Assembly: GCA_964499325.1 (NCBI GenBank)
Contig: CAZCKS010000002.1
Span: 59-64,058, forward strand
DNA length: 64,000 nt
Direction of reading: 5' to 3'
Source: an uncultured Bacteroides sp.
GTDB lineage: Bacteria; Bacillota; Clostridia; Christensenellales; CAG-917
Below are positions 15,343 through 62,391 of this stretch, piece by piece. The translations under genes and the position numbers were made by a program. The notes under the pieces are model-generated. The model worked only from the letters and a program-made list of their open reading frames with translations. It made no database searches and was not told the origin of the DNA. The first letter of the stretch is position 1. Each line of letters begins with the position of its first letter.

Positions 15343-15347
15343 ATCTT

Positions 15348-35474: not shown

Positions 35475-35507
35475 AACATCCCTCCGAGACATTATTCATT
35501 ATACGTT

Positions 35508-35535
35508 ATTATATCACAAGAAAGGAGAATTTCAA
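35508..35535 (-). promoter_or_regulatory. putative promoter of the SPFH/zinc-ribbon operon
   Basis: On the minus strand: TTGAAA (35530-35535), a 16-nt spacer ending in TGA, then TATAAT (35508-35513). This is an extended -10 configuration. Confidence 0.55.
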
Positions 35536-35582: not shown

Positions 35583-35621
35583 ACAAAAAGACAAAAGGCC
35601 CTGCTTGAGCAGAGCCTTTTT
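35583..35621. terminator. intrinsic terminator of the giant gene
   Basis: The hairpin AGGCCCTGC-TTGA-GCAGAGCCT (35596-35617) has T/A runs on both sides. It lies about 25 nt after the stop at 35643. Confidence 0.75.
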
Positions 35622-35642: not shown

Positions 35643-38600
35643 TTATGCCTTCTTCCATGCACCGCCTTCGTAAGTGAGTGTGACAAGTGAGGATTTGACT
35701 TGGTATTCGGGGATAATTTGTCCTTTAACAACACCCGTTGCCACGTCGCTATCCGTTGCCTCTCTTGTAGTAACGATGTCACCGCTTGCGTCGATTACAG
35801 TACCGACTGCGGCATAGAGTTGATACACAACTTTTCTTGCACCGAATGTCGGCGGAAGGAGTGTTGTCTCTCTTGCACTTGAAAGCGTCACTGCATAAGA
35901 TGCAATCACTACTTGACCAGCCAAGTCATACACCGTTGCAGTACCAAACCAAGCGACAGGAACGTTATTCGTGCCGTATGTGAGGTTGAGTGCGGTTACC
36001 GTGGTGTCGCTCATCGTAATAGGAGCGGTTACCGTGGTGTTTGCAAGGTTTGTAGTGCTTGCAACCGCAATCTCAACGCTGATACGCTCTTGCGTGCCAA
36101 GTTGGATTATTGCGCTCTTGCCTGCGATATCGGACGTGATGCCTGATGCAGAAACAGTGTATTTGTACGATGCGGGCATCGAAACGAGCGTGTAGTTGAA
36201 TGTCTTCTCCGCTGTCGTTGCCGTTGTTGACATCGTTACAACGCCACCAGTATATGTCGGCTTATACACATTGAAGTTCACCTTGTAGGAAACGGGGAGT
36301 TTCAATGAGTTGGCGTCATACGGATTGATGACAAATTTCGCCGATGCTTTACCGTTTGAAACAGCACTTGACGTTGCATACGTTGACGTGTCGCTTACGT
36401 TGGTTGCAAATCTCTTTGTTGCCGTAGCGCTCTTATTGACGTTGTAATCAATACTTGAAACGACCATCTTTTGGACAAGGAACGGGATATCATAGTTTTG
36501 CACAACGCCGTCAATATCCGTGAGTTTTGCAGTGACGTAGATGACTCCGCCCTCATAACTCGGACGGAACTTGCTGAAGTTCCATGCGAGATTTTGAGTG
36601 GTGCTTGTCGTTGAATACGTACGATTTTCCGTTGCCGTAGTGCTGTTCGCCTTAAGGACAGTTACCGTCAAGGTGTTGGGCATTGTCGGCTTGACATAAT
36701 CGTAAGGATTGATGTAGGTTGACGTGCCGTTCCAACCTGTAAGCGCAGTAAGCGTGCTGTTTGAAACAACGCTTTGTACGCTTCTATTTCCGATTTGGAC
36801 GGTGAACGGAACCTTTTGTGCATTCATCTTGTTTCCGCTGTAGTTGTATTCGCCATCATAGTTGATAAGCGCATACGCCGTGAACGTTCCACCCGCATAG
36901 GAGAAGTTGACGCCACCAAAGTCCCAAACGACGGGAACCGTAGTTTCAACGCCGTCGATTGTGACCTTCATTTGAGTCGGGAAGTACGCATAGTTGCGGT
37001 CAAGTTCCTCGTCAGAGAGTTCGACATACTTATATTCCGTAGTGCCGTTTTCCGTCACCTCGACATATTTATACTTGCCGTCGAGGTTGTTCTTCTCATA
37101 ACCTGTTGTGGAAACGGTTGCTTCTTCATATCTGTCGCCGGTATAGCCGGACGCTCTCTTGAACACACCGCCGTCGACCGTTGAGAACGGATCGATGACG
37201 AATGCGTTGCTATTTGCACTCCAGAACTTGTTTTGAGTGCTATCGCCAAGGAGTGTGACGTCGTCTGCGGTTATCTTTGCACTCTTGATGTTGACAGCGA
37301 CCTCAACGCTTGCATTTGCGTTGTTGCCTTCCAATCTGCTGGTAGCGGTTGCCTTAACAGAGGTTGTACCGCCCTTGTAACCGTATTCCGCAGAAGAAGT
37401 ATTCCACTCTGCATTGAGCGTTTGCGTTGTCACATAGATGAATACGTACAAATCGTTGCCGTTTGCGTCCGTATATGTCTTGTTTTCGTCGTCGGCTTTG
37501 ACTTCGCCCGTGTACAATGTGTAAGTCTTTGTGCCGTTCTTGAGAGTGTACAATGCTGCTCCGCTTTCAAGTCCGCGTATATCGCCACAGCCGTCAACAG
37601 TATAGACGTTGTAGATGTCGTGACGTTTTGTATACGTGGAGTTGTATGTCGGCTTGCCAGCCTCCATCGTCTTGCCGTCCCACATCCAGTTGCGTACGGA
37701 GATAAATTGTCCGTCGACATAGTATGTGAACGTATCTGCGTAATTGCTTGTGTTGAAGACAGAGTCGCTTTCGCTTGCATACGGCGAGAATGAGTAGCGA
37801 TAGTCGCCAACAGACATGTTGTTGTATGCGATGTTGCTGTTGAATGCCGTAACCTTGGACGCTTTGACCTTGATCTTCATTTCAAATGACGGCATAACCT
37901 CGAATGCCTCGCCCTCTGCAACTTCTGCCGGGTTGACGTTCCATGTGCGGACAGTCATTGTCTTTTCGAGCGTCTTTGTAACGCTTTCCATATCTTCCGC
38001 CGTGGGTGCGCCCTCGTAAGTGACGTAGTAGACGCCCTTATCTCCGCTTGCAAATGTAAGTTGCATGTAGTGCGGCAAGTATTCGCCACCGACGTATGCG
38101 AAGTTGTTGTAAATCACATAGTCGGTAGGCATACCGCTGTCTTTATCGTAGACGATTTCGACATATCTACCGCTACCCTCTTCTTTTCCGATGAGGGTAT
38201 CGGTGATAGTTGAATATTTCGTATCGACGTGTTTTACCTCGAGGTTGGAGTTGGTGATAAGAATCTCGCCGTCAACAATCGTGCGGTCAAGCACCGTTAC
38301 CGGCACGCTGACCTTTTGTTTTGCAAGATAGTATCTCGTCTCATCTGCAAGTTCGCCCTCGAAGTCTTTGACTGCAACGTATTCTTTCTTGCCGTCGCCG
38401 TCTGCGTCAACGTATACGTAGTCGCCGTCTGCGCTCTCGATACCGACGATTGCCGTCGCTCTGTAAGAAGTGTTGCTCTTCTTGCTCTTGATGAGAGAAT
38501 CGACATAAGACCAATCGAAGTAGGCAAGCACGCCGTCCCAACTGCCTATGGTCGTAACCATAAGTTCGTTCTTAAGACCGCTTGCGTCGCTTGTGAGGAA

Positions 38601-41600
38601 TGTGTCGATGACAAGTGCACGATACTCGTAATCGCTGATGAACAAGATTGTTCTGTCGCCGATGACGATGTTGATCTTGCCTGTCTCGCTCATTGCGCTT
38701 GCTCCGCCGACATAGTTGTACGTGATGTCAATCGTGTACTTCTTGCCGAAGTATTTGGAGATATTCGCATAGAAGTCCGCATCGCTCTTGAGGTTGTTCG
38801 GATCGATTTGAGCAAGTGAGTAAGTGACGATTACGCCATCTGCCACGCCTGCAGTCGTATCAACCTTAAGTGCGCTACCACTCTTGAAGAACGTTGCGTC
38901 GCTTGCGCTCCAGTACGGATCGAATACGAACGGAGTCTTCTCGTCATATCCTGCAATACCAATGATACTTGCACCCTCGACGTTGACATTGACGTCAACA
39001 GTCGTTGTGAGATTTTCGCCCGTGATTGTGAGCGTCATCACACCACTGAATCCGTTGTTGTCGTAACTATCGCTCCAAGCAAGCGTTACGTTTGCGTTTT
39101 GTGCGCCGTCAAGTTTGACAACAGAATTTGTCGGCAATCCCTTGAAGAAGTCAACGCCCTTGCGCTCGATTGAGAATCCGTCTGCGTATGAGCCGTTGAG
39201 ACCTTCGAGAGTGAAGTTGTTGTTGATAGTGATATGTTGCGTGTAGGAGACAAGTTCGTCGACGTTTCCGCTTGCGCTGATTGTGACGTATGCTTGTCTT
39301 TCAAACCAGCCTTGCTTGATTTCGTCTGCCGTCGGCATAGACGTATCTGCCCACTTGAGCGGTACGTTATTATACGTCGTGCCGTTTGCAACAACCGTTG
39401 CGGTGTCTACGAATGTGAACGGAGCAAATACATTGTATTTGTCTGCTTGACCGTTCGGCGTGACCGTAACGTTTGCGTTGAAGTTGTCAAGGTACACTTT
39501 GGCTGTAAATTCGCCTGTGGACGGGTATCTGATGTCGGACTCGTCAAAGAAGTGATATTGACGTTCGACATACACACCGTTATCGTCCATTGCGATTTCG
39601 TCTCTTGTCGGTGAGGCGAGATTTGTCCAGTAGACAGCCGTGCTAATCGGGGCTTTGCCTTCTTTGAGCGTGACGGTTGCGCTTGCAGGCAAGTTCCAAG
39701 CCTCGAGCACATTGTAAGAGAGGTTGAGCGTGCTCGGCTCGTTGCCCTCTTGCGTGAGTGCGTTGCTACCGAATGCGAATGCTACGTTGGTAACTTCACT
39801 GCTCGGTGCATTGACATTGACCAAGACTTTGGTGTTGTTGCCGATGATTGCATAGACCGTCTTTTCAACGCCCGTTACGCCGATGTTGTCCACTCTCGAC
39901 GTCCAACCGTTTACGTATGCAAGGTAAGAGTCGCCTCTCTCGCCTGCGGTGAGTTGTACGTACGTCTTCTTCGCCATCTCGTACTTGAAGTCGCCGTCTT
40001 CAGCCTCCGTGAAGGAGTAGCGTGTGCCGCTGTATTCGCCTGCAATCAACACGTATTTCTTGCTGTCCGCGTCATATTTATACGTGCCGTTTACGCTTTC
40101 TGCAATGCTGTAACGCTTGCCTGAGTAGGTGCCCTTCTTGAGGTTGACAAGGACGATTGTTCCGTTGATGTCGCCCCATTCGCCACTTGTGAAGTATGCG
40201 GTGGAATCTTTCGCGAATGCGATAGGAGCGATACCGAATGCCTCGCCGTTTGCGATATGAGTTTGAGCATAAACCGTACCGGTGTAGTAATCCTTATCGG
40301 TGAGTTTGCTCTTGATTGCTTCTCTCTGCTCCGCACTCATCGAGTAGATGTCGCCGACCGTACTGTCATAGAAGAAGTTGACGGAAGCGATTTGTTGTTG
40401 CTCGACGTTGAGTTTGAGAGTGATTGTTTGTGCCTTAAGGACGGTGTTGCCGTCGCTGTCCTTTGTTTGGACAAGTCCGAGCGCGTTGCCGTCGCTGTCG
40501 TTATTCTCGTATACGTACGCGTCAACTTGAGCATAGATTGTACCGCCACTGTAAATGGATTGTTCCGCCTTGAGTGTGGTGCATCTTGCGTTGGTGTAGT
40601 ACTTGACCGTTGTCCAGTCAGGATACATCGTGTGCGTCGTATTGATGCCGAAGGATACGTTGAAGGACTTGTAGTCGTCGCCCTTGTACCACGTCGGATT
40701 GAATGTGTCTTCGTGTGCAACGTTAACGTTGACGGTGGTGGGAGCGGTCGTATCGATTGAGATTGGCAAGTAGTGTTCTTGCTTACCGCTGAATTCCGTA
40801 CCGATTGTGAACTTCGCATAGAGCGGATATTCGCCCTTGTAGCCGTCGTAAGTGATGTCGTTTTCGCCAAGAGCGTATTTGCCTGTTGCAGAAACGTACT
40901 TGTCATCGTCTATCTTGACAAACGGTGCTTCCACGCTCAACTTGTTGCCGACGCTTACCTTTTGAGATTCGTCAACGCCCTTGAAGTTGATGTCAAACGC
41001 ACTGCCGAGGCTTTGTGCCGTAATCTCTTTTGCGGAGTACGGATCGAATGTCACTGCGCCGTTGAGCGATGAGAATTCACTGCCCGTAACGATAATCTTG
41101 ACTTTGACTTCTTGTGCGAAGTTGCCTGTATACGTCTCTTCTTTGCCGACAAAGCCTACCGTTGTGGATGAGAGCGTCGTCTGGGTTACCGTTGTAGATA
41201 CCTTGAACATATTTCCGCCAAGTTTTGCCGTGACGGTTGCTTCAAGTCCCTTGTAGTAGTTGATTGTGCCGTCCTCGTTTCTCAATGCGTCGATTGCGCT
41301 GTTGAGTTCAGAGAGATCCCAATCAAGGTCCATTGTCGGAATGCTTGCACCCACAACATACTTGACTTGTGCCGACGTGAATGCGTCGATGTAAGAGGCA
41401 AGGTCGCTTGTAGCAAGGTCGAGTGCGCTAATCTTATAGATTGTGGTGTAGTTACCGTCATCGTCACGCTCGCTTGTGAAGTTTACTCTTGTGCCGTCAG
41501 CCTTGGTCATGTTGGTGAGGCGAGAAATCTTGTAGTTCTTTGCGGTGATTTCAAGCGTCTTGTTCACGGTGTTGCTATCGCCCCATTGATAGGAGTAGCC

Positions 41601-56600: not shown

Positions 56601-59600
56601 CGTGATGTCGTCTTGGAAATCGATGCCGAGTTTAAGACCAAGGTCTTTGATGAGCAAATCGAGATAGTTTTCAAGGCGAATTTCTTCATCTTGTTTCTTC
56701 AAATCCACTCTCAAACCGAGTTCGAGGTTGAGAGACAATGTGTTGAGGTTCTCAAAACTTGTATAAACGGACGCGTCGAAATCATCTGGCAAAATACCGC
56801 CGTCAACACCGAGTTCGATGTTAATCGGGCAGAGTTCAAAGCCCATTTCAAGCGGGGACGCCTCAACGTTGAGTTCGAGTTTATAACCATTCTTCCAGAC
56901 AAAGGAGATATAACTGTTATCAGAATTGAGTTGGAGGAATTTTTCCGGTGCGATTTGCTTGCCCGTAAGCATGCTTACCACCGTAGCGACAAGCGCTTGT
57001 GCAAAGTTGACCTCGATACCGTCTCCGCCAATACCGATATGGCTTATGATATTGCCCAAAGAGGAGCCGATAATACCCATAATATCGAGTCCGCCATCCT
57101 CTGCGCTTTCGTCTGCCGACGTATAAGCGACAGCCTCTGCGTCATCGGAAGGAGTGAGCAATCCGCCCAGCAACGATTCAAGCGGAATGTTGGTAAGTGC
57201 AACATGGAAGTCGTCCTTAAGGTCGAGATAAAGCGTGCTTACGGTTTGTCCGTTCAATTCACCTGCATAGACAAGGCGCAATGCGAGAATAACGCATTCC
57301 AACTTCTCTGATGCGCTCATGTTGTCAACTTCGTTGATGTTCTTGTTGTAAATCTCGATAGCGAGATCGCTATGTGAGAGGATATATCCAATATCAAGTG
57401 CGGATGCTACGGAATAAAGAGCAACGTCTTTGAAGGATTCCGCATTGTCGTCCGTAACATTGACTTTGACGTATGTACCGCCCATTTCTACGAATGCTTC
57501 GCCTCTGAATGTTGCGTCGTATGCTTGTGCATCAAGAGCGATACCGCCCTTTTGATAGTGCTTAACATACACTGCTCCCGTGTAAGAGGTGCGTTCTGCG
57601 TCGGTGAGAAGCACATATTTGCCGTCATCCAACTTGTAGACTTCCACCATGTTCGCAAGAGTTTGCGAATAGGCAGAATATCTCTTGAATGAGACGTTTT
57701 GCGTCAAATCGATAGGTGCATCGGGGTTGAGACGCACATTGAGTGCGATACGGAAACCGATGTCGGACACTGTATCGTCGGTGTTGAATTGCAAAAGCAA
57801 TTCGCTTATGAACGAATTGAGGTCTGAAGACGTATCGTCGAGGAAGTTTGCAATCCACTCGCCGATTGTCCATTGCTCGTTACCTGCTTTTGTGCCAAGG
57901 CTAATCGTACCCTTTATTTCTGCGAAAATGTTGGGGATTGTGATGTCGCCGAAGTCATTGAAGAGACCTGCGTCGTCAAAGAGCAAATCTTGCAAGTACT
58001 CGTTAAGTTTGAGTTCTGTTCCGTCACGAACGATGACGATGTCATCTGTTGCAACCTTTCTGTCGCCGATATTGAGGCTTGCGTCTTTAGCATAGATTTG
58101 TGCAGAGCCCGTCTCTTTGCCGGCGTCGTTCTTGATTTCACCGCCGACACGGAATGCCTTGCCGTCATGTTCTTCAAGTTGATCCCATGCGATGTCAATC
58201 CATGCAGACACGTCATTTGCGTCAATGCCGATGAGTGCGTAAACGATTTCTGTCAAGCCTTCTGCAAGTTCAATTTTGAGGCTATCGGAGGAAAGCAATG
58301 CGATGATAGAAAGCGCAAGTTGTTGTTTTGCGACATCTTCACTTGCAGTTCCGTCGCTTGCGACCATTGCGTCGCCGATTGCGCCGTTGCCGTTAATGCT
58401 GATTGTGCTGTCTTTTGCAAGCAAGCCGAGAATGACCTCGTAGAGGTCAATGTTCGTTTTGAGCCTATTTACGCCAAAGTTGCTTGCGTCGACATAGAGT
58501 TCTCCGCCGACATAATACAAGCCGAGCAATACTTGAACGGGGTTCGTGCCCTTCTTGCCCGTAAGTTCGATGAGCAAAGAGGTTGTATTGTTCTTTGTAT
58601 TGATTTCGTTTTCGCCGAACAAATATGAGATAATCGGGGACAAGTCAAGTTGTCCTGCGATGCGGAATTCATAATTGAGAGAGATTTGTTTGTCGAAAGA
58701 GAATGATGTTGAATTCAACGTCTCTACGACATACAATCCCGATGTTTCGTCTTTGTAATAAAGTTTGCCGGTATATCCTGTGGGGACCGCTTTATCCGCT
58801 ATTGCGACATATTCGGATGTGCTTTCATCATACCAGTGTGTTCCTGCAATACCGAATTGTGCAATCGTGGTGCCCTCGTCCGCCTTGAGGTCAAGTCCGA
58901 GGGTTATATCGAATGAAATATAAGGATAATCGAGAATGGATATAAACTCTTGTGCTTGTTCGTCGGGGAGATAATGCACGCAACCGTCCGTCAAACCTGC
59001 ACTGATACCGTTAAGCGCAATACTTGCGTTGAGGCTGTTGCCCAAGCCGATATAAAGACCGATTTCAAGTTCGTTGAGGTTGAGACCATCGTTGAGAGCC
59101 ACTCTCAAACCGCCTTGAATATCGGAGTTTTCAAACGCAATCGTAACGCCCTCGATGTTGAGCATATCGAGCAATTCGTCAAGTATGCCACCGCCTACGG
59201 CAATTTCAAGAGCATTGTTGCCGAAACTTACGCCTTGGAAAATATTTGCGATAAAGCCGATAATGGCATTTACGTCCATACCTTCCTCATCCTCTGCAAC
59301 GATAGCGTCGGAAGCGTCGGTTGCACTGTCGTTTGTGCCCAAAGAAGAAATCAATTCGGAAATGTTTACCTTGATTTTGCTTACGTTAATCGAATTGAGC
59401 AAGGAAGCGTCGAGATAAAGCACTCCGTCTTGCAAATAGATTGCAAGCACTGTCTCGCGGCTGCTGTTGGTGATAGCGATTTTTGCAGTAGATTTGAGAA
59501 TTGCGTCGAGGTCAAGTCCGTCGGATGCGTCAATATCTGCGCTGATTTCAATGCCGAGACCGCCTTTAATGTTGCCCAATTCGAGAAGCACGTCAATGAG

Positions 59601-61880
59601 CAAGCCCTTGAACGTTTCGCCCAAAGACGCATCGGGAAGATCTACTTTGATGTTGGCAAGAGAGCCTTTAAGCGTCTCAAAGTCGATGTCAAGACCTGTA
59701 GAAACGTTGATATGCAACAAGTCCGCATTCAACTCGCCGTTTTTGAGGATGGGCAAATATTTGTCCGCATTCTCTCTTACGTTTGCAAATGCGTTTGCAA
59801 AATATTGTTCGTTTTCGACTTTACCAAAGGTAATTGCACCGATAAGAGCAAGATCGAGGTCAAGTCCGTCCGTATTGTCGGAATTGGGGATATAAATGCC
59901 CGTCTCGACTTCAAGGCGTTTTTCCTTTTGACCGCCGTCGTTTACAAGAGCAAGTCTTGTCTTGTCTGTTTTAAGCGGAATTTTTGCACTTGCATTGTCG
60001 CCCGTAAATATAAGGCCAAAGAGCATATCGAGGACGTCTTGCGTAAGAGCAACGGAGATTTCTCTGATGTTGAAGATGTTTTCGTCCATCTCAAACTTAA
60101 TGCAGTTGACAATCGTTGAGATGAGGCTCATGACGTCGACGTCGCCGTCTGCCGTCAAGGCATTGTGTTCAACAACAATGTCTCCGCTTTGGAGCATCGC
60201 TTGATATTGTGCGGATGCCGTTGCGTCACTGTTTACCGCATTGAGAACGGTGTCAAAGAGTTTGTCAAGCAATTCGTCGATAAGTTCGTTGACGTTGATG
60301 TCGTCAATTCTGAACTTCGTACCACTGTCGCCCAACACACCGCTTGCGTCAATATAAACGCCTTCGAGTGCGCCGTCATAGTATGCGCCGAGTCTGGTTT
60401 TTCCACCGTTACCGCGCACCTCTGCCAAAATTTGCGTCTTGTCTTCATCCTTGGTGTTGATGACGCCTTGCAAAACTATGGAGAGTTCGATTTTTTGATT
60501 GTTTATAGTTATATCTTTCGCAAAGAGAGGAGCGAGAGACTCCAACATCTCTGCAGATACGTTTGCAGTGAGAATATTTGAAATGAGTGTGCCAAAGGAG
60601 CCTATAGCGTCGTTGATTGTCACCGTACCGTCTTTGAGGTTGAGTGAAAGCGTTATAGATGCGTCGAGAGTGAGGAATGAGTATTTATTTGTGCTGTTTT
60701 CTACGTTCGCATAGAAGTTGTCGGAGGTGTCTTGACCTTCAGCAAACGGAACGTTGTCTTTATTGCGGTTTTTGAGCATTGCGACAACGTCGATATCCGG
60801 AGTGCCTGCAAATTCGGCTTTTGCATAGCCGAGAGAAATGCCCACTTCGGATTGGAACACGTCGTATCTGTTTTGAACCTCTTCCACCCCATAGGAGTTG
60901 AAGTCCGTATCGATGTCAAATCTGATTCCGGCAAGAGAGTTGTCTCTGATGTCCGCTTCGAGATAGAGAGCCACACCCGCCAAAGAGCCGAGTTTGCCGA
61001 GGTCGAGTCCCAAAATATCCTTCACGAGATCCGTGATGTTTTCGGGGATAAGACCTTGCAAAAGCGGAACAAGACCTACGATAAGTCCGAGGTCACAAGG
61101 AATTTGCAATATTGCGTGTCCGCTACCATAATCAACGTAACGGGCTTGGTTTCCGCCAAGAAGGATTGTCGTTATCAAACTCTCAACAGTCATGCTGGCA
61201 ATGTCCATCTTGATAAGACTGTTGATGAGCGAGCCGATGTCATAGCCGAGAAGTTTCTCAAACAACAATTCGGAAATATTAAGTTCGGAAAGGAATGCGT
61301 CGAATTTCTCGACAAGTCCGCCGAGATCTATATCATCCGTCCACACAACGTTTACGCCCTTCTTGATACCGCGCATATCGGCAACAAGTTTGCCCTCATA
61401 GTAATATGCTCCGAACAAGAGTTTGCCCTCTCCGCTGTTGGAAAGGCTTGTAATCGTATCGGCGTCTATGGTCAATCCGGCAAGTTCCGTCGTCTTGAAT
61501 TGTCTAAATTCAATCAAGATTTCGCTTGTATCGTCGGCTTGAGATGTCGCTTCGGTATCGATCTTGCCTGCAAAGCGCATTGTCACAAGGCTGTCATAAG
61601 CGTCTTTGGCAAAACCGAGGATAAACGTTGTATCCACCGATATGTAGCGAGACCCCTTACCGCTCTCCGCTCCCGCATTAAGTGCGGATTGCTTGAATAT
61701 CTGCCAAGCAACTTGCGAATCAAGCGTCGTCTTATTATCGACGATCGGGCCCGGTGTGGGCGTCGGAATAACAGGCGTTGTCGAGCCGTCTTCTTCCGTC
61801 GTATTACAAGCAACGAGACTGAACAGCATTACGCTGACCAGCACGAGCAACAATACGAGTGTTAACTTTCTCATTCTCAT
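35643..61880 (-). CDS. giant (8,745 aa) modular surface lipoprotein, function unknown
   Basis: This is a single stop-free frame of 26,238 nt. The context is GGAGGAG SD, then ATG, then the signal peptide MRMRKLTLVLLLVLVSVMLFSLVAC with a lipobox. About 14 divergent modules are followed by a C-terminal Ig-like array. It has its own consensus promoter and terminator. Confidence 0.9.
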   Translation of the reverse strand: MRMRKLTLVLLLVLVSVMLFSLVACNTTEEDGSTTPVIPTPTPGPIVDNKTTLDSQVAWQIFKQSALNAGAESGKGSRYISVDTTFILGFAKDAYDSLVTMRFAGKIDTEATSQADDTSEILIEFRQFKTTELAGLTIDADTITSLSNSGEGKLLFGAYYYEGKLVADMRGIKKGVNVVWTDDIDLGGLVEKFDAFLSELNISELLFEKLLGYDIGSLINSLIKMDIASMTVESLITTILLGGNQARYVDYGSGHAILQIPCDLGLIVGLVPLLQGLIPENITDLVKDILGLDLGKLGSLAGVALYLEADIRDNSLAGIRFDIDTDFNSYGVEEVQNRYDVFQSEVGISLGYAKAEFAGTPDIDVVAMLKNRNKDNVPFAEGQDTSDNFYANVENSTNKYSFLTLDASITLSLNLKDGTVTINDAIGSFGTLISNILTANVSAEMLESLAPLFAKDITINNQKIELSIVLQGVINTKDEDKTQILAEVRGNGGKTRLGAYYDGALEGVYIDASGVLGDSGTKFRIDDINVNELIDELLDKLFDTVLNAVNSDATASAQYQAMLQSGDIVVEHNALTADGDVDVMSLISTIVNCIKFEMDENIFNIREISVALTQDVLDMLFGLIFTGDNASAKIPLKTDKTRLALVNDGGQKEKRLEVETGIYIPNSDNTDGLDLDLALIGAITFGKVENEQYFANAFANVRENADKYLPILKNGELNADLLHINVSTGLDIDFETLKGSLANIKVDLPDASLGETFKGLLIDVLLELGNIKGGLGIEISADIDASDGLDLDAILKSTAKIAITNSSRETVLAIYLQDGVLYLDASLLNSINVSKIKVNISELISSLGTNDSATDASDAIVAEDEEGMDVNAIIGFIANIFQGVSFGNNALEIAVGGGILDELLDMLNIEGVTIAFENSDIQGGLRVALNDGLNLNELEIGLYIGLGNSLNASIALNGISAGLTDGCVHYLPDEQAQEFISILDYPYISFDITLGLDLKADEGTTIAQFGIAGTHWYDESTSEYVAIADKAVPTGYTGKLYYKDETSGLYVVETLNSTSFSFDKQISLNYEFRIAGQLDLSPIISYLFGENEINTKNNTTSLLIELTGKKGTNPVQVLLGLYYVGGELYVDASNFGVNRLKTNIDLYEVILGLLAKDSTISINGNGAIGDAMVASDGTASEDVAKQQLALSIIALLSSDSLKIELAEGLTEIVYALIGIDANDVSAWIDIAWDQLEEHDGKAFRVGGEIKNDAGKETGSAQIYAKDASLNIGDRKVATDDIVIVRDGTELKLNEYLQDLLFDDAGLFNDFGDITIPNIFAEIKGTISLGTKAGNEQWTIGEWIANFLDDTSSDLNSFISELLLQFNTDDTVSDIGFRIALNVRLNPDAPIDLTQNVSFKRYSAYSQTLANMVEVYKLDDGKYVLLTDAERTSYTGAVYVKHYQKGGIALDAQAYDATFRGEAFVEMGGTYVKVNVTDDNAESFKDVALYSVASALDIGYILSHSDLAIEIYNKNINEVDNMSASEKLECVILALRLVYAGELNGQTVSTLYLDLKDDFHVALTNIPLESLLGGLLTPSDDAEAVAYTSADESAEDGGLDIMGIIGSSLGNIISHIGIGGDGIEVNFAQALVATVVSMLTGKQIAPEKFLQLNSDNSYISFVWKNGYKLELNVEASPLEMGFELCPINIELGVDGGILPDDFDASVYTSFENLNTLSLNLELGLRVDLKKQDEEIRLENYLDLLIKDLGLKLGIDFQDDITLDLGLTLGANLVLNDANSSQILIEIKDNEENKNIFAIYVNGGDIYFDFGDLGREPFYLKDTNIAEVVCNTIADLLGDLNSVIGGDGDASVASDDVDEYSAEQKMQAILTIADGKMGVLVMQNVIVGLIAALTSGDASSDIDIAELLEKFNLDLSVGVDFQIKPSIKFDLNVDSNLIALGVSVKDISLATGDDTPISQNIKNKVSDEIKSKVNNKDKYTELTEAHIIALDLSVIVDYYGSATYTFVDDEKIGTYAPADRYSYESSNNRFVQDNNGNYIREGFKFDTLLDYLFGMESLQDILATMLPQIRFDTTDQELGVEMVNNAISLGSLLERFGLSLVLSDKIDDGFKLDINVRLNLEDMGMNDLANIDLDNLNLDIETILKGLEAHIGIDFTYELGEDSTSKLDIYLLSGVLYLDASGIGGPRIQVDILDLLSALGIDLGGNSSDDAIVADESADSSLDVMGIINSLIKNVVVSKNLWGAKDLNNAIGGLGIFFRSEAINDLLSLLLKTNINNDMVLLDDGHSGIFLYPQKQFGDDDMLALELKATLANRKDPASVENNEEYQQYTWDLLVGVNAQFTLESTDTYQPMLDIDESRNFISLNEYVDNILGLINGFNGEVYRKEESPVQDGEYYVFVSDVNGGYVLKANMYRPINAGETVADSERYARIPATVNAEGKATYFVEDANGGYVYDAQAKTYVAYDESAHAGATRYNYVTEELTKVQLYNKGTKAVYEDQNIGLSVSGLIYFNSQSAEAVNAGGLISNLFGDMIINLQTLSAFNAGIGVRISANVDLAALDLAGLLSGAGIDAFIANSDLDKVELAIEFIEVDANGFFATYSNGEEKVLGGLYLNHDTLYIDLTKVVGTAENYSKIDNFMSFAKQVADKISSISGSDAQTASDVEPYAEERAIAVRDALIMLAYSDTHFQIQITRALIAFVLSTLMPDLGSIEEVFDVFNVSLGVDFGKTQYRLLSELTEQELAAIPDIDKYKYNGDSETAFAEVQDTQLDMYYATETGYYTSNRILYEMNDAGQYEATSKQYDAEGTYYIAPDSQYELVTGIAYGKYIHQNSDYYGLVRFGGAEEKVSLNNYKMYTRQNGARVQTSTYIKGNTFVLYNGNEVAIEKLYDYQYGYVKYNGIDNIDDYTYYRTVELFDSIDEYYLGLDIAVGCVNLGLKLGGLNLTVGGGKELLPDYIRDQKEHSYVNEKGEEVQYESSLSDTEKDKFEEIKTNPFYDTIITLGFSVELELGITEGTLDLGQILSTIVGNLTGIVVEMPSTSKGYSSAHFRLDVSLMMDIYDLTNSELKIELLNITETGYESLWLGAYYVNDTIYLNLEEAFNIQKVAIGGLNIADLLGDILIDFSDDDDYFTFGATDASNADAFVAGGSVANGDVDFSNKDLALSMLINKDLLTIALGDKLFDTILEYIPEDLLGFDIKDLFYQEINGSLQLKLDTSDKINLEASVALGLDGERFTSVSINDVKNAQKAGKLFIDNTSDVQGIADTEEERYYYFAVAEDGNYVQGNDGQYMRAISPTDDVNGVTRYARYRIVDVFENAETDKPAQIKVRKVVDNGSNDGSEKLDDTVVSITISDTLKVYNFVEGASANKSYSSDGAKYDTALELMLAIKDLDIAFTNSRTYVLSGDELKEYTNFDDVDRFTLEETIDISTSFSYKNDIDLSTVLATFIPGLTQEQLLVIQSQSDTNGDVDRSLQLVIKADIQVAALLNYFRTELIKYAGDSDQFDGDMDLFSVIELLGQVIGSIGDAELGEIVANIASFVNLSLVIQTKGGNDSDYHDLLGIYMAGGTFELLDEANGDLDETNENYVAPENRFDHYFETKNGSYYRDSNGKYQLIQSDEYAGTRYSYDSSYCYSNEKGRYKRVNGGLFIDLSYFNIPSVKVDASEVRKLVGSLFTLGATDDAMTADGELADDTSVFPLVKDDSILGYIRSLAYGMQVTSRYIKVLTQPDIINQLLKLLMGEDAVQFDEAGFQNKSALTIFTDNTRYTYDNRADVIANATNAINNTQNETERINARKDLVSKLEQSKNLFKVEESANGIYYIDDDNAYTQKSDMSTLERAEYDALVATGVKKYYNVTMVKTYINVGGKYMLYSDASQSQVNASVKDSALAQIGVSMPQLYVASGNGYVAVDNSEYSVVRPLEARNAFISLDLFLWDYEVSLNINAPHVGVTEFLYADVTNENGNDVATDKYGNKYENIAKGAYYVNTDEIIYTSVDKEADGMDNWELDYYDGANFSAEKYAQAPRYYEYKNSYYVIDKDTLYVKEGKNYVLATSTSKNNGAFPNYLEDIQKNDTQYYVATGVSYTPIQRVFIYKQEKYNTEKKVLLSELREQLIASGLSEAEADAQLDAQSKHIKVQQDSTVLPPDFSDAKYADYAYKTYVDTEDLYYLSLTLSGSVFLQAGKIYFSYADYVSAYKEIKKTEPNDSDISEYFYKKVQGDYVKVSSTDNIANLKKDGNLYVWVNEALGDKYSGVNEALGDVLGGLLGGMKGTFQVTEDMTFNVYFTLRLNLGFKLYILPSFGIDVRDLDVAIDVWGEQNDKYSIGNGQYAYISTADRNAGDYDVKLLDGTKPHLFGLYYNNDQETGKAGLYLDLESLLGKDAKVYVDMSKYSLEDLISGLVGGLMSDDDAMTADEYTEKYNNDKQGTDKMGLYVNIFTNAIALNVTSGFVKVLMNELLTDSSSIVDMLPNFKVYVKQDLNPYQLTLGAILFNEQGDIPVINFGFNLQGLNGERGTSSMIEFGKKEDILANQTGSNNIFYYANFHRDNSNTNYSNYYGKNFDEKDFVKLYRDVDGNEYYAKENGGYELTKKDDNSGLYTAKVNAKGGYALYKSVNGTTVTNYGPEDRYVKADTVMEEIKESRRYSLGSPYRTEYQSTVYTDISGQYVLVQEKLNNISNSDYRYLANSKQFGAFNGTLYVLDEDDNYIKVSKSDIQGFTGSGSLQYAKMGEYSANETEKKGAVVVDGVTYYPIDPNGDGYTDMYEADGFTAYTSGANYSGVLYTRTQTTKKVGENTYTYSTYTASKVTTASYTSGEYFYPNAPQKAYKMTSDFTNYSKIVDLNLNDLLNGATLDIASMLGDLNSVEIGASVGINMKLSDIINWTYQLTRFIDDENICDYLYFIASSMEDAYTSFTSTIGLNLDLKVYLQTAGLLRMLAGDGEATILDVLEGAKIYLEIQYATNYHGNIDPPTAKLWAEIIGGKLYVMLDAEEIGRELGWGDFFSYGVINGLNLGTLLGGDSSSSAVVAVDDDENVDTGVLPENIWSVVNLVLGRLLIANDFVTIGLNETLLADLVAMFADSDSEILQGIAQFLPKLYTTNDKDTSGLTINLYNNQPSIDINLGFKVGTEFYLTVEEYNAQYGANGSHINRGNGITWTSNMTTFTKDSDGNYTVAKSFDNANYVLVSTDEYALISYAFPQWTGDRYAYDASTGTFTKNSAGNYLKQGDFRLSITMGGLYARFNKDFSVDKAETFADRDSKGNIVKDEEDNPTYDKYVSLKTLKLGLDMSIDISLYGSGNTQNNANVIDLSELLDLIVGLIDPNSAISGSSLQLLITNAIGNNTDAYLKMQLSANIDLENWMAELGLRIVRNSNIDGETTLMGIYLVRENGVDNLYIDLQGILGDSAKICIGGLNLGGKTGLLYSLLGKMLETDDTVTEEGEAGTSDASDIKTIEDAMRDYAYLMITVNPQKLLLQLNADLINVIYRKIQQIRGLDYSENLLPDLGDILLRGETRVYEKLTDAEKATYEGSRFRYENGNYIYDANGDYKYVPGATRTSLSIRLSDGLYFGVDIPAASMSKTLINMSGKYGPFNSSDYGEPILMLDLNNLINEGGSIDLSGLNLPTIGFTANIDVTLSTDSTVSPEGDKDKYSRSFANWIVELLTTMLDGTSMFGTFEELEGAEKTSYTGKTYNYDGATRTYVAAEEGTIGTHKFVMADINLRMPADILELTIALKANLNLGTIITYGIGGILYSDIALEIKDKTLNKTILSVYYLGSSALKKSGNSWELTDEDGTVFSDAIYIDASGIGLGKIKFQGLSGLLGATPYNQVPTDAVASADGTTSASTSASEALALSIGIENGKMSVTLERSVIDALLAMLNLDLKSMLGVDLPPIQQVSLDIMTSTKGLNSINLGADLDSVGTSVALGINDINFAFRGEAFSSKDTINSVKAGYAGLTFSSTSGMMSLIQNVIDNLNPGLSINIQNKVWQAMADGTKMDGLSTSSAVKGDHATSSITLDLLKEYLYTNQVENESGGKKYNLRLNLTAKGVTSSGASVQRSKTSLVGIIGGNNAFLTNIAVDGTLISWVKNLSDFLDCIDLTSLLGLEYPLIGLVSGTDGDNSTYTYPSSASIASDDATIAGNNELSSTSSGWNKKKTAYTYSANMSGLIKSLDVNLLNDYGYWPYYSGATISTSSIGKMSIKMTLDKDAYNELAIMITTIVMGLMQEGIDGEDGEVFFADVEKLGDDKVAWTKSGAQISSVGNTDEITKFFDGLDALVQRGATTAEKALYVEPFARSLPATLLKWVIVCLVEPAINISMVNWGTIRSVANDSLVDIQKLIGGILPIPFASGEIDPSINIYIDLDPTPSEYGCSNCTMQPGVQAIEIMVNGKKTGPDSNGNYSGTSMLYNKTSTSYGNFKYGLQPDGTTTDINDNAWDFFMLRITPYSTTHSDYYTGMLTFDDSNSAETISGQTKAPTEIVIKDPATRTGTAVYSGGEEKEFALRDSYFFDETYFPQMADVTFGNGYHSYNADTPYMDAWGTHIVWDAASVNLTAARDNDTNGRWLAGYVYGYALNTVLYAIPVYVTNDFDQTGIRAYDANTDANGNVTGFKAKDIILDLDSTSKTFRTTLPNLVQISFSAGTYTFGTVATDSTGSTMYAVVRDGNGGYKMLAQPSQDEIDDGTATANTNKDGNKYYILPAYIQGLETNEKGEYVTVELEDITYCVIDLSKMPKGRNFPAGIITWDTDDFTYNWQGNTSWKESDANNVIKVGYSYQWGDSNTVNKTLEITAKNYKISRLTNMTKADGTRVNFTSERDDDGNYTTIYKISALDLATSDLASYIDAFTSAQVKYVVGASIPTMDLDWDLSELNSAIDALRNEDGTINYYKGLEATVTAKLGGNMFKVSTTVTQTTLSSTTVGFVGKEETYTGNFAQEVKVKIIVTGSEFSSLNGAVTFDPYSAKEITAQSLGSAFDINFKGVDESQKVSVGNKLSVEAPFVKIDDDKYVSATGKYALGENDITYDGYKGEYPLYAKFTIGTEFSGKQEHYLPISIDTTAPTTVNVNVAHEDTFNPTWYKGDDYKSFNVSFGINTTHTMYPDWTTVKYYTNARCTTLKAEQSIYSGGTIYAQVDAYVYENNDSDGNALGLVQTKDSDGNTVLKAQTITLKLNVEQQQIASVNFFYDSTVGDIYSMSAEQREAIKSKLTDKDYYTGTVYAQTHIANGEAFGIAPIAFAKDSTAYFTSGEWGDINGTIVLVNLKKGTYSGKRYSIAESVNGTYKYDADSKKYVLIAGEYSGTRYSFTEAEDGDFKYEMAKKTYVQLTAGERGDSYLAYVNGWTSRVDNIGVTGVEKTVYAIIGNNTKVLVNVNAPSSEVTNVAFAFGSNALTQEGNEPSTLNLSYNVLEAWNLPASATVTLKEGKAPISTAVYWTNLASPTRDEIAMDDNGVYVERQYHFFDESDIRYPSTGEFTAKVYLDNFNANVTVTPNGQADKYNVFAPFTFVDTATVVANGTTYNNVPLKWADTSMPTADEIKQGWFERQAYVTISASGNVDELVSYTQHITINNNFTLEGLNGSYADGFSIERKGVDFFKGLPTNSVVKLDGAQNANVTLAWSDSYDNNGFSGVMTLTITGENLTTTVDVNVNVEGASIIGIAGYDEKTPFVFDPYWSASDATFFKSGSALKVDTTAGVADGVIVTYSLAQIDPNNLKSDADFYANISKYFGKKYTIDITYNYVGGASAMSETGKINIVIGDRTILFISDYEYRALVIDTFLTSDASGLKNELMVTTIGSWDGVLAYFDWSYVDSLIKSKKSNTSYRATAIVGIESADGDYVYVDADGDGKKEYVAVKDFEGELADETRYYLAKQKVSVPVTVLDRTIVDGEILITNSNLEVKHVDTKYSTITDTLIGKEEGSGRYVEIVYDKDSGMPTDYVIYNNFAYVGGEYLPHYMQLTFASGDKGVYYVTYEGAPTAEDMESVTKTLEKTMTVRTWNVNPAEVAEGEAFEVMPSFEMKIKVKASKVTAFNSNIAYNNMSVGDYRYSFSPYASESDSVFNTSNYADTFTYYVDGQFISVRNWMWDGKTMEAGKPTYNSTYTKRHDIYNVYTVDGCGDIRGLESGAALYTLKNGTKTYTLYTGEVKADDENKTYTDANGNDLYVFIYVTTQTLNAEWNTSSAEYGYKGGTTSVKATATSRLEGNNANASVEVAVNIKSAKITADDVTLLGDSTQNKFWSANSNAFVIDPFSTVDGGVFKRASGYTGDRYEEATVSTTGYEKNNLDGKYKYVEVTENGTTEYKYVELSDEELDRNYAYFPTQMKVTIDGVETTVPVVWDFGGVNFSYAGGTFTAYALINYDGEYNYSGNKMNAQKVPFTVQIGNRSVQSVVSNSTLTALTGWNGTSTYINPYDYVKPTMPNTLTVTVLKANSTTATENRTYSTTSTTQNLAWNFSKFRPSYEGGVIYVTAKLTDIDGVVQNYDIPFLVQKMVVSSIDYNVNKSATATKRFATNVSDTSTYATSSAVSNGKASAKFVINPYDANSLKLPVSYKVNFNVYKPTYTGGVVTMSTTATTAEKTFNYTLVSMPASYKYTVSASGITSDIAGKSAIIQLGTQERISVEIAVASTTNLANTTVTAPITMSDTTVTALNLTYGTNNVPVAWFGTATVYDLAGQVVIASYAVTLSSARETTLLPPTFGARKVVYQLYAAVGTVIDASGDIVTTREATDSDVATGVVKGQIIPEYQVKSSLVTLTYEGGAWKKA

Positions 61881-61940
61881 AATCTCCTCCGAGGCACACG
61901 CGTGTCCTCACGTATGTGCGATAGATTATTATACGCGATA

Positions 61941-61969
61941 ATTATAGCGTTTTTTCATGCGCTTGTCAA
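61941..61969 (-). promoter_or_regulatory. perfect consensus sigma-70 promoter of the giant gene
   Basis: On the minus strand: TTGACA (61964-61969), a 17-nt spacer, then TATAAT (61941-61946). It lies about 60 nt upstream of the ATG. Confidence 0.7.
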
Positions 61970-62384: not shown

Positions 62385-62391
62385 TTTCAAT

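Follow-up and report, generated by a model that had tools for sequence, protein, structure and literature searches.

The window, that is the whole stretch of 64,000 nucleotides analysed here, carries on its minus strand one uninterrupted reading frame for a protein of 8,745 amino acids, and comparison between genomes shows it to be a real, single-copy, syntenic core gene under purifying selection. The product is supported as a predicted extracytoplasmic protein of the Sec/lipobox type that is anchored at its N-terminus, and it forms a new family among the giant surface proteins, which are a broad class. We infer that the protein is exposed on the surface, is elongated and has a role in structure or adhesion. 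A strongly expressed surface scaffold or fibre of fixed length has, in our estimate, about an even chance of being the correct description of this role.

Reading Frame and Lipoprotein Signal

The gene (35643..61880, minus strand) starts with ATG and contains 8,745 codons without a single internal stop, followed by the stop codon at 35643-35645; the window sequence is free of N. A Shine-Dalgarno sequence, GGAGGAG (61884..61890, minus strand), lies 4 nt 5′ of the ATG, and comparison of the upstream regions showed that its GGAGG core is kept in every orthologue. A preliminary description of this DNA had reported a single 26.2-kb ORF, of which frame, ATG and Shine-Dalgarno sequence all hold, and a lipoprotein signal with Cys at codon 25. 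This signal is confirmed by the pattern of the N-terminus and by its conservation. The protein begins with MRMRKLTLVLLLVLVSVMLFSLVAC, and the signal peptide with its lipobox L-V-A-C occupies aa 1-25 (61806..61880, minus strand). The PROSITE-type lipobox pattern is present with S-L-V-A-C at the cleavage site and Cys at position 25; positions -10 to -5 contain no D, E, R or K, and R2, R4 and K5 are located near the start. The features expected of a signal peptidase II substrate (positive n-region, hydrophobic h-region, [LVI][ASTVI][GAS]C, Cys at 15-35) are all found. Cys25 is invariant in the family alignment A1, 22 genome loci have equivalent lipoboxes, as do 11 long relatives, and [VTFI][AG]C occurs in all relatives whose N-terminus is present. 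The predicted lipidated Cys is directly followed by a short Pro/Thr-rich linker (aa 26-50, NTTEEDGSTTPVIPTPTPGP..., 61731..61805, minus strand), in which P39, P41, T42 and P43 are invariant in alignment A1.

Conservation of the Gene

Orthologues were found in 23 species-level genomes. Twenty of these have a frame that stays open as far as the fetched DNA extends (at least 4,467 codons). Full-length collinear relatives from independent assemblies have 6,529-7,924 aa, 22-31 % identity and a lipobox start, and in the seven relatives of 7,286-7,924 aa the collinearity only ends 10-40 residues before the C-terminus. Close orthologues show dN/dS values of 0.12-0.22 over the first ~4,500 codons, with 0.07-0.29 across every 500-aa block measured; values for the flanking genes are 0.01-0.18. 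Because an open frame of such length is conserved in 23 species-level genomes under purifying selection, the ORF is not open by chance.

A chimeric assembly, or a decaying, chance-open or non-functional ORF, could be argued from the three of the 23 loci that give no full read and from a further one in which the gene was called in two pieces. The first of the three (L005, from a long-read MAG) has a stop at codon 1071, and homology persists through three frame switches and 23 gap openings relative to a 96 %-identical short-read assembly, a pattern typical of nanopore indel errors. The second (L003) is a scaffold with N runs and a stop at codon 2352, and the third (L019) is a contig of 2,135 bp that ends after 580 codons. 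The two gene pieces (L025, a scaffold) are divided solely by a scaffold gap of 10 N. The open frame in the other 20 genomes, the full-length collinear relatives and the dN/dS values of 0.12-0.22 all speak against an artefact, and the ORF lacks repeats able to collapse in assembly, any DNA repeat within it being 38 nt at most. We regard this explanation as effectively refuted and give it almost no weight. The preliminary description had named stops, frameshifts or chimerism as evidence that would count against the gene; in the independent assemblies the frame is open.

In a large protein index, 69 of 1.84 billion cluster representatives are relatives, all of them members of this family, and the sole name found for family members is "hypothetical protein, partial." Most of the family genomes appear to have been deposited without annotation, and the gene appears to be fragmented on short-read contigs. 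In the literature we found analogies only and no description of the giant lipoprotein family; giants with RCC1-type and other repeats are described from Clostridia in a survey of giant genes in Omnitrophota.

Promoter, 5′ UTR and Terminator

A sigma-70-type promoter, TTGACA-17 nt-TATAAT, is located at 61941..61969 (minus strand) and matches the consensus in 12 of 12 positions. Of 23 orthologous loci, 21 have the identical promoter, again 12/12 and with a 17-nt spacer, 84-93 nt 5′ of the ATG. Just 3′ of the promoter -10 lies a second conserved -10-like box, CGTATAATAATCTA (61921..61935, minus strand), whose columns are nearly invariant in an alignment of 15 orthologous upstream regions and which is a candidate for an alternative -10 or for the start-site region. 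Directly before the Shine-Dalgarno sequence, the 5′ UTR can form a stem-loop of 10 bp (61894..61919, minus strand; dG -13.3 kcal/mol). All 15 loci folded, including the window, form this hairpin, with dG values of -7.4 to -18.1 kcal/mol and z-scores of -1.8 to -5.0; the stem sequences vary among lineages and the pairing is retained. RNAalifold did not report a consensus structure for the MAFFT alignment of the 5′ UTR, because the hairpin stems fail to align, and the hairpin was seen upon individual folding. It probably serves as a 5′ stabiliser of the mRNA. An intrinsic terminator with a 12-bp stem (6 G-C), a 4-nt loop and a T-rich tail is located at 35593..35620 (minus strand). The perfect promoter and the strong terminator that had been ascribed to the gene were thereby both verified. 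Since the consensus promoter (21 of 23 loci), the 5′ hairpin (15 of 15), the strong Shine-Dalgarno sequence and the gene's own terminator occur together, the giant gene is probably highly expressed.

These signals might also be those of a self-assembling coat, an S-layer-like lattice or matrix in which lateral packing of the protein would form the outermost layer and replace a conventional S-layer. A perfect promoter, a 5′ stabiliser hairpin and a strong Shine-Dalgarno sequence are typical of very abundant envelope proteins such as those encoded by S-layer genes, and here the promoter is conserved, the hairpin is stabiliser-like, the product is acidic (pI 4.3) and the core gene is constrained. 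However, known S-layer proteins have 40-200 kDa, in contrast to ~1 MDa for the present protein, and SLH, CWB2 and other domains for S-layer anchoring or lattice formation are absent. We consider such a coat rather unlikely.

Composition and Search for Known Domains

The giant protein contains 9.5 % L, 8.5 % D, 8.2 % G, 8.0 % T, 6.8 % N, 6.1 % Y and only 0.2 % C. With 1,225 acidic (D+E) vs. 647 basic (K+R) residues it is acidic and Cys-poor, as had been noted before; the mature protein has 954 kDa. The signal peptide is the only hydrophobic stretch of transmembrane grade, and the C-terminus reads ...LTYEGGAWKKA. Motif scans of the whole protein detected no LPxTG or LP.T[GAS], no C-terminal hydrophobic segment, no HExxH and no RTX motif GG.G.D; RTX matches are likewise absent from Pfam and T1SS genes from the flanking genes.

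Pfam returned zero matches for the whole protein even at E≤1, and the same was true for a 29 %-identical relative at E≤1. NCBIfam yielded no credible match (the lone row has 14.7 bits, with a cutoff of 448). Neither Pfam nor NCBIfam found SLH, CWB2, choline-binding, LysM, dockerin, hydrolase or toxin domains. When 116 overlapping windows of 260 aa from three family members were searched against Pfam at E≤10, no family was enriched, and PHROGs gave no match at E≤0.01. Neither phmmer searches with both protein halves nor searches with family profiles (N-terminal 1,100 aa; C-terminal 2,845 aa) found a PDB sequence. The best PDB-sequence match, glucose-6-phosphate isomerase with an E-value of 0.33, was dismissed as noise. 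Thus, the earlier statement that the protein has no enzymatic or wall-anchoring domain agrees with the empty Pfam, NCBIfam and motif scans. The modules, for which the preliminary description had named no family, are not placed by Pfam, NCBIfam, PHROGs or PDB searches either; a profile match to a characterised family was the other outcome that it had named as counting against its reading. Because the Pfam, NCBIfam, PHROGs and PDB-sequence searches are empty, family profiles included, an enzyme or toxin is unlikely; we think that the giant protein is neither of these, nor a repeat-variable adhesin.

Fourteen Modules with a Frozen Copy Number

Iterative HMM searches and profile self-comparison identified 14 ancient, strongly diverged alpha/beta modules, which are concatenated between aa ~51 and 5,900 (44181..61730, minus strand) and are ~250-800 aa in size. 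Each module contains a signature of ~100-190 aa, "LGaYY-x-G-x-LYvDas...ki.vd..l..ll - acidic loop - DvmgiI." The signature copies, all on the minus strand, start at aa 147 (copy 1, 61152-61442), aa 463 (copy 2, 60042-60494), aa 775 (copy 3, 59190-59558), aa 1092 (copy 4, 58296-58607), aa 1491 (copy 5, 57000-57410), aa 1759 (copy 6, 56238-56606), aa 2122 (copy 7, 55131-55517), aa 2546 (copy 8, 53889-54245), aa 3044 (copy 9, 52380-52751), aa 3531 (copy 10, 50718-51290), aa 4340 (copy 11, 48534-48863), aa 4930 (copy 12, 46701-47093), aa 5336 (copy 13, 45483-45875) and aa 5721 (copy 14, 44301-44720). The iterative HMM found no copies beyond aa 5,860.

All ten full-length relatives carry 14-15 signature copies at matching positions. 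The preliminary description had suggested comparing length and module number between strains. Total length does vary (6,529-8,745 aa), which is due mainly to indels and to the variability of aa ~6,900-7,700, but variation in module number is not borne out, because the count is frozen, the orthologues are collinear, DNA repeats are absent and dN/dS is 0.12-0.22. The 14-15 frozen modules and the end-to-end collinearity, taken with the latter two observations, favour a structural element of fixed architecture over a typical variable adhesin, as far as this can be read from sequence.

Structural Model of the First Modules

The stretch of aa 30-1100 (58581..61793, minus strand) was modelled with AlphaFold2 using a 59-row alignment (A4) of family members taken from the database and cut to the modelled stretch, which gave a mean pLDDT of 76.6 and a pTM of 0.63; an earlier model made with a 9-row alignment had a mean pLDDT of 43.7 and was discarded. 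The model shows long antiparallel strands (12-15 residues) alternating with helices, and low-confidence loops inside and between the signatures. At the linker end, model residues 1-14 have a pLDDT below 50.

The entire 1,071-residue model was used as Foldseek query. Against the PDB the best TM score was 0.31 (normalised to the target) and no E-value was better than 8.6e-4. The matches with the highest probability were LolB (9tpm, 0.85; 1iwm and 3wjt, 0.60 each) and Csa4A (4EGD, 0.82), a split beta-barrel lipoprotein (PMC6593408). Superposition of LolB and Csa4A on the model resulted in TM scores of 0.24-0.31 and an rmsd of 13-17 Å, calculated for the whole 1,071-residue query. Matches of lower probability included microsomal triglyceride transfer protein and lipovitellin (0.13-0.15), LIMP-2 and LptD/E. 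Beta-groove structures of the AsmA/TamB/VPS13 type are absent among the best 50 PDB matches, and a search of viral structures (BFVD) gave no match at E≤0.001. The model therefore appears to be without a convincing PDB match, the resemblances to LolB and Csa4A being weak, and with nothing convincingly similar to the fold among solved structures (best TM 0.31), a function cannot be transferred.

The LolB and Csa4A matches raise the question of a carrier or conduit for hydrophobic cargo, in which 14 open half-beta-barrels of the LolB/Csa type would bind lipids or acyl chains on their concave faces, either each for itself or in one continuous groove, and the protein would store lipids or lipoproteins or carry them, as a shuttle or a bridge, through the wall or over to a partner cell. 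Open half-barrel lipoproteins are the only Foldseek matches of appreciable probability, and the module region is rich in aliphatic residues (LIVFM 29-36 % in most 250-aa blocks vs. 20-27 % in the distal region); the pTM of 0.63 suggests that the modules pack in a defined manner. Yet the structural matches are poor by TM score, rmsd and E-value alike, LolA-clan Pfam families are absent at E≤10 in the 116 module windows, HHalign comparison of ten module profiles with E. coli LolA and LolB gave probabilities of ≤0.5 %, and AsmA, TamB and other lipid-transfer families are unmatched in Pfam. A half-barrel fold alone does not imply lipid binding, and we know of no second membrane in the host lineage. 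A carrier function is accordingly improbable in our view.

We rate as very improbable a more specific version, in which the 14 half-barrel-like modules would stack into a continuous, partly hydrophobic, membrane-anchored groove, tens of nanometres long, that conducts lipids, or hydrophobic molecules of another kind, through the wall. If true, the protein would be the Gram-positive equivalent of bridge-like lipid-transfer proteins and represent a previously unknown class of conduit in gut Clostridia with reduced genomes, and a partner cell might be the donor or the recipient.

C-terminal, Presumably Distal Region

The composition profile delimits a C-terminal region of aa 5,901-8,745 (35646..44180, minus strand) that lacks the module signature and is presumably distal. 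Compared to the module region it contains more T, S and W, is less acidic and has fewer aliphatic residues. These ~2,850 aa are beta-rich with small Ig-like repeats, the Ig-like signal being marginal, and the region has no Pfam or PDB matches in the window protein. The repeats are of the beta type, ~55-100 aa long, and are located at aa 7316, 7388, 7480, 7576, 8152, 8312, 8427 and 8535 (36168..39935, minus strand). In three of five family members, a C-terminal segment of ~60 aa matches Big_4 (PF07532) with 22.4-24.8 bits, marginally above the cutoff of 22.1. The orthologous copy in the window protein (aa ~8,290-8,375, FPTQMKVTIDGVETTVPVVWDF..., 36756-37013, minus strand) shows the pattern P-x-x-[VIL]-x-V...V-x-V-x-W, but Big_4 is below detection there, both in 3,000-aa and in 400-aa pieces; if accepted, the domain would explain less than 1 % of the protein. 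In the full-length alignment, the least conserved and indel-rich stretch is aa ~6,900-7,700 (38781..41183, minus strand), with an identity of 0.09-0.18 and a gap fraction of 0.36-0.68 vs. an identity of 0.2-0.3 elsewhere. It explains much of the length difference to the relatives of 7.3-7.9 k aa.

A poorly conserved stretch in this region would be expected if the distal region were the ligand-facing part of a long-reach adhesin, in which the modules are merely a stalk and the specific partner is host mucus, dietary particles or another microbe, for example a methanogen that consumes hydrogen. The marginal Big_4-type repeats would suit this function, and the small genome (~1.65 Mb in a related complete MAG, CP091723.1), together with the Fe-only hydrogenases encoded by the host genome, fits a partner-dependent fermenter. 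On the other hand, stalk and tip are equally constrained wherever this can be measured (dN/dS, first ~4,500 codons), the copy number of the modules is invariant, and recognised adhesin domains are absent. We consider an adhesin of this kind unlikely.

Proposed Role and Comparison with Known Systems

We thus return to a scaffold or fibre of fixed length. According to this proposal, a monocistronic gene with strong constitutive transcription would yield an acidic product of ~954 kDa, which would be exported by Sec and lipid-modified at Cys25, so that its N-terminus would be tethered on the outer face of the cytoplasmic membrane. The P/T linker would be followed by the 14 alpha/beta modules, with curved antiparallel sheets, helices and an acidic loop, and then by the beta-rich distal part of ~2,850 residues with its small Ig-like repeats. 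The whole chain would act as a structural element of fixed length at the cell surface, an envelope scaffold or long fibre, and the distal Ig-like part would be displayed at or beyond the wall, where it probably mediates binding. A structural character is suggested by the richness of the model in long beta-hairpins and helices and by its pTM of 0.63 over 1,071 residues; in part, the structural role is a diagnosis by exclusion. Of the membrane-tethered fibre, adhesin or scaffold proposed in the preliminary description, the lipobox anchor and the Sec-type export signal stand, while the role is still a proposal.

Giant1-5 of Apilactobacillus kunkeei, giant surface proteins of 3,000-8,000 aa from a small-genome Firmicutes species, and Ebh are the closest analogues in kind. 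Giant1-4 are reported to have N-terminal beta-solenoid binding domains and to diversify via recombination and gene exchange (PMC12863079). Like these proteins, the present one is extracellular, reaches the megadalton scale and comes from a bacterium of Gram-positive type, with surface location and elongation presumed in our case, and its gene takes up more than 1 % of a small genome. Ebh of Staphylococcus aureus is a giant cell-surface protein, too. Neither Giant1-5 nor Ebh has a sequence or domain relationship to the present protein. It differs from Giant1-4 in having no recognised domain and a predicted N-terminal lipid anchor, and in that its one gene keeps the same place in the chromosome and shows uniform purifying selection and a frozen module count.

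LolA/LolB and the staphylococcal Csa/Lpl proteins appear to have in common with the modelled N-terminal modules an antiparallel sheet that is curved and unclosed and is accompanied by helices; they are also lipoproteins, and no other solved structures are given as probable relatives (0.60-0.85) of these modules by Foldseek. They differ by the low TM scores (0.24-0.31), by the lack of detectable sequence or profile similarity, and by being single domains of ~180-240 aa instead of 14 concatenated modules of ~250-800 aa. With bridge-like lipid-transfer proteins and AsmA/TamB the likeness is conceptual only, namely very long proteins made of repeated beta-sheet units; no Pfam match of the AsmA, TamB or DUF490 type was found, and the anchor here is a lipobox in contrast to a transmembrane helix.

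Giant surface proteins are a known class, from which the present protein departs in three ways. All of its 8,745 residues are outside Pfam, NCBIfam, PHROGs and PDB sequence space, and the modelled first part has no convincing structural neighbour. Instead of a fast-evolving repeat array, the gene is a syntenic core gene with a 14-module plan conserved down to ~23 % identity. Its hosts are uncultured gut Clostridia, and with 26.2 kb it costs ~1.6 % of the ~1.65-Mb related genome. As there is no match to a known family or solved structure, what is probably a major piece of the cell surface of these Clostridia is uncharacterised. Once its function is solved, one of the major envelope components of a gut lineage that is widespread would be defined, and at least one new domain family, possibly a new fold, would be added.

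Genomic Neighbourhood

The flanking genes are housekeeping or metabolic, and sortase, secretion and chaperone genes are absent among them, in line with the earlier observation that no such dedicated genes neighbour the giant gene. A functional link to the upstream acyltransferase-3/HGSNAT-like gene or to the downstream SPFH-Zn-ribbon pair was considered and found to be unsupported, because synteny covers the entire stretch as far as metG/tatD, and in the most distant relatives the genes upstream differ. Since the conserved neighbourhood reaches metG/tatD, it reflects general synteny and does not point to a functional partner. The downstream neighbourhood is identical in relatives down to 23 % identity, and the hosts of the family are uncultured Clostridia from human and animal guts.

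Open reading frame, lipoprotein signal and domain searches

The giant gene is a single frame that runs from 61880 to 35643 on the minus strand, starts with ATG and comprises 8,745 codons with zero internal stops in an N-free window; the Shine-Dalgarno sequence GGAGGAG lies 4 bases 5′ of the ATG. The N-terminus of the predicted protein, MRMRKLTLVLLLVLVSVMLFSLVAC, consists of a basic n-region, an unbroken hydrophobic core and L-V-A-C with the cysteine at position 25, and thus fits the standard lipobox pattern. TM-grade hydrophobicity is confined to the signal peptide, and the LPxTG motif is absent, as had been claimed; the protein carries an N-terminal lipoprotein signal and no other membrane or wall anchor. 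For the mature protein a pI of 4.3 and a mass of 954 kDa were computed; the composition is acidic and rich in L, D, G, T, N and Y, with 0.2 % Cys.

The preliminary description had recognised no enzymatic or anchoring domain in the protein, and this holds in the database searches. Three overlapping pieces covering the whole protein gave no Pfam match at E ≤ 1 and nothing credible in NCBIfam, where the sole row reached 14.7 bits vs. a cutoff of 448. Pfam also had no match for a full-length relative at 29 % identity, PHROGs had none for the giant protein, and PDB sequences had none for the protein and family profiles. HExxH is absent as well, and the protein lacks recognisable catalytic, toxin and secretion-related domains.

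Within the giant gene, the plus strand at 36774-61865 also contains dozens of long antisense ORFs, for instance 47244-48770 and 50262-51476; they reach 508 aa, and most begin with TTG. They are probably shadow ORFs due to codon bias; similar antisense frames from the flanking DNA of related loci have dN/dS values >1, as expected of non-genes.

Conservation and selection

The ORF contains no tandem repeats and no direct DNA repeats longer than 38 nt, which removes repeat collapse during assembly as a concern. When GTDB representatives (one genome per species) were scanned with the N-terminal alignment as query, 23 loci with 31-65 % identity emerged, all from uncultured gut Clostridia MAGs, with labels such as 'Christensenella sp.' UBA bins, Firmicutes bacterium CAG:475, CAG:238 and UMGS1366; among them is the complete 1.65-Mb long-read (nanopore) chromosome CP091723.1 (locus L005). 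In these other assemblies the frame is uninterrupted in 20 of the 23 loci over the DNA compared (3,936-4,849 codons), and the open loci share the start MR(M/K)RKL...[VF]AC. The exceptions are explained: L019 is a 2-kb contig, L003 is a scaffold with N runs, and in L005 homology persists across three changes of frame, where the comparison with a 96 %-identical short-read assembly (L002) has 23 gap openings.

Orthologues are collinear with the window protein, and identity is even across all 4,500 residues compared. When 1.84 billion cluster representatives were searched exhaustively with HMMER, only 69 turned out to be related. Nine of these have 6,529-7,924 aa, and each of the nine has an N-terminal lipobox; seven of them (7,286-7,924 aa) can be aligned with the window protein over residues ~20 to 8,703-8,736, at 22-31 % identity. 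Over the first ~4,500 codons, closely related orthologues show dN/dS values of 0.12-0.22, with 0.07-0.29 in every 500-codon block; flanking genes of the same genome pairs have values of 0.01-0.18. A two-pattern scan of the complete genome found one locus, compatible with a single copy. The open orthologues, collinear relatives, synteny (see below) and dN/dS values establish that the gene is real, vertically inherited and under purifying selection. Even with the frame switches of the long-read chromosome in view, an artefact is barely conceivable.

The apparent frameshifts in L005 are located at locus positions ~13,180, ~20,795 and ~21,094, and the L002 counterpart is intact; automated annotation of CP091723.1 would give fragments or a pseudogene for the giant gene. 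Three orthologue carriers (L013, L015 and L022) are labelled Anaeroplasmataceae bacterium, Butyrivibrio crossotus and uncultured Bacteroides sp., respectively, which looks like taxonomic mislabelling or contamination of MAG bins.

Module architecture

BLAST self-comparison revealed almost no internal similarity. An iterated HMM found 14 copies of a signature between residues 147 and 5,860, each 100-190 residues long, spaced 270-810 residues apart and marking an alpha/beta module. It reads roughly LGaYY-x-G-x-LYvDas...ki.vd..l..ll, followed by an acidic loop and DvmgiI. Variation in length and module number had been raised earlier: length does vary (6,529-7,924 aa vs. 8,745), but the HMM found 14 or 15 signature copies at corresponding positions in all nine other full-length relatives. 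The modules therefore go back to ancient duplication, and their count has stayed frozen ever after.

From about residue 5,900 the composition shifts (T, S and W up, acidic and aliphatic residues down), the signature is gone, and the C-terminal ~2,850 aa contain small repeats of 55-100 residues. Near the end, at aa ~8,290-8,375, a Big_4 Ig-like domain barely passes the Pfam threshold in three of five family members; the window protein's own copy is below it. Conservation is lowest and indels are most frequent at aa ~6,900-7,700. The protein thus has a fixed plan of 14 modules and then a beta-rich distal region. A long-reach adhesin in the narrow sense could have such an Ig-like end, but repeat adhesins typically vary in copy number, the opposite of the giant protein, and we regard this reading as unlikely.

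Three 250-aa blocks in the module region are Tyr-rich (10.8-13.2 %) and aliphatic-poor: aa 4501-4750 (47631-48380), aa 4001-4250 (49131-49880) and aa 2751-3000 (52881-53630). They may be sub-domains inserted in longer modules.

Predicted structure of the modules

An AlphaFold model of aa 30-1100, with 58 family members trimmed to the target as input, reached a mean pLDDT of 76.6 and a pTM of 0.63 (785 of 1,071 residues at pLDDT ≥70); with a nine-row alignment instead, pLDDT was 43.7. The model shows long antiparallel strands (12-15 residues) in hairpins with helices interleaved. Four stretches have a pLDDT <50, two of which (model residues 539-548 and 824-838) lie in the acidic loops of the signatures.

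Foldseek against the PDB gave only two matches at E ≤ 0.001, and no target-normalised TM exceeded 0.31 among the matches listed; BFVD gave no match. All matches of appreciable probability are open half-beta-barrel lipoproteins: LolB of three species (0.85, 0.60 and 0.60) and 4EGD (0.82), the staphylococcal tandem lipoprotein Csa4A with a split beta-barrel (PMC6593408), with weak superpositions (TM ≤0.31). Large lipid-transfer proteins, LIMP-2 and LptD/E were low-probability matches. Two independent sequence tests of a LolA/LolB relationship were negative: LolA-clan families are absent among the sub-threshold Pfam matches of 116 module windows, and HHalign of ten module profiles against E. coli LolA and LolB gave probabilities of ≤0.5 %. 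In the general shape of the model, the modules may thus be similar to half-barrel lipoproteins, but their sequences do not demonstrate membership in that superfamily. A carrier or conduit for hydrophobic cargo made of half-barrels, which this shape would allow, is accordingly quite improbable.

Expression signals

The perfect consensus promoter noted earlier is TTGACA-17-TATAAT (12/12) at 61969..61941 on the minus strand, and the strong terminator has a 12-bp stem at 35620..35593 on the same strand; the observations of the preliminary description are confirmed in every detail. The 12/12 promoter with its 17-nt spacer, at −84 to −93, is kept in 21 of the 23 orthologous loci despite only 41-65 % identity among the encoded proteins. 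In almost every orthologous upstream region, a second −10-like box, CGTATAATAATCTA (61921-61935, minus strand), follows the consensus −10 at a distance of about 6 nt; it is nearly invariant in columns ~41-56 of the alignment of 15 loci. It could be an alternative −10, a start-site/discriminator element or a regulator binding site.

Between CGTATAATAATCTA and the Shine-Dalgarno sequence a hairpin is folded in all 15 loci (−7 to −18 kcal/mol), with stems that differ in sequence among lineages and retain pairing. In Firmicutes, a stable stem-loop close to the 5′ end of an mRNA guards it against 5′-end-dependent degradation; by analogy, the hairpin could plausibly protect the 26-kb transcript, whose synthesis takes minutes. 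The SPFH gene located 3′ has its own promoter-like site (35535..35508), which together with the terminator indicates that the giant gene is probably monocistronic.

Proposed role and related giant proteins

Uniform purifying selection over the first ~4,500 codons, core-gene synteny and conserved strong expression signals go together with the anchor and module plan. Our preferred reading, at about an even chance, is a structural role at the cell surface: a scaffold of the envelope or a fibre, fixed in length and probably with a tip for binding. The protein would cross the membrane via Sec, be acylated on Cys25 and stay at the outer face; the modules would form a long body of defined length, and the C-terminal Ig-like region its distal, ligand-facing end. 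Strong expression would also suit a self-assembling S-layer-like coat, which seems rather unlikely. A small remainder of probability goes to a role outside all the readings named here.

The nearest functional analogues of such a scaffold or fibre are giant surface proteins of other small-genome Firmicutes. Examples are Giant1-5 of A. kunkeei (PMC12863079) and Ebh of S. aureus. The giant protein has no sequence relationship to either; they diversify via recombination and repeats, whereas the giant protein is frozen. It also has none of the RCC1, Listeria-Bacteroides, YG, dockerin or LRR repeats of the Clostridia giants in a giant-gene survey (bioRxiv 10.1101/2023.11.21.568195). In the sources searched, members of the family go by no name other than 'hypothetical protein, partial [Clostridia bacterium]'. 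The giant protein is one of the giant surface proteins but forms a new family, set apart by its module type, which is new as well, its lipid anchor and its exceptionally rigid architecture: a near-megadalton 'dark' protein, conserved and functionally constrained in a widespread gut lineage, with a function that is predicted only.

Gene neighbourhood

One flank of the giant gene contains genes for an SPFH/Band-7 protein with Zn-ribbons, a Zn-ribbon protein and two 'Gate' membrane proteins, as well as metG, tatD, a radical-SAM protein gene and ksgA. Further away are AdhE, Fe-only hydrogenase, P-type ATPase and similar genes. As described before, no dedicated secretion, sortase or chaperone genes are among the flanking genes; the 64-kb window has no tRNA or Rfam elements. 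Contigs of three of the long relatives (P0019, P0029 and P0038) and of a C-terminal fragment (P0075) share the downstream order (Mem_trans), SPFH-Zn-ribbon, ~360-aa protein, DUF1858, ..., Gate, metG.

The products of the gene pair directly 3′ (33281-35492, minus strand) are an SPFH/Band_7_1 protein, which has several Zn-ribbons in its C-terminal part, and a ~353-aa Zn-ribbon protein. In all contexts seen (the window and loci L024, L025, L026 and L027) the pair comes after the giant gene, sometimes with a Mem_trans gene in between; it presumably resembles the B. subtilis membrane-stress genes ydjG/ydjI. On the opposite flank, a divergent gene for an HGSNAT_cat/Acyl_transf_3 membrane acyltransferase (62350-63300, plus strand) lies upstream, an arrangement that 21 related loci have as well. 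In the distant relatives L023, L024 and L027 its distance is greater by one to several genes, and in L026 it was not found within 8 kb upstream. No evidence links it functionally to the giant gene.

At 10650-18982, a SpoIIE-type phosphatase gene is located between two Fe-only-hydrogenase-like genes, adjoined by a bifunctional AdhE gene; given these hydrogenase-like and AdhE genes, the host is evidently a hydrogen-producing fermenter.
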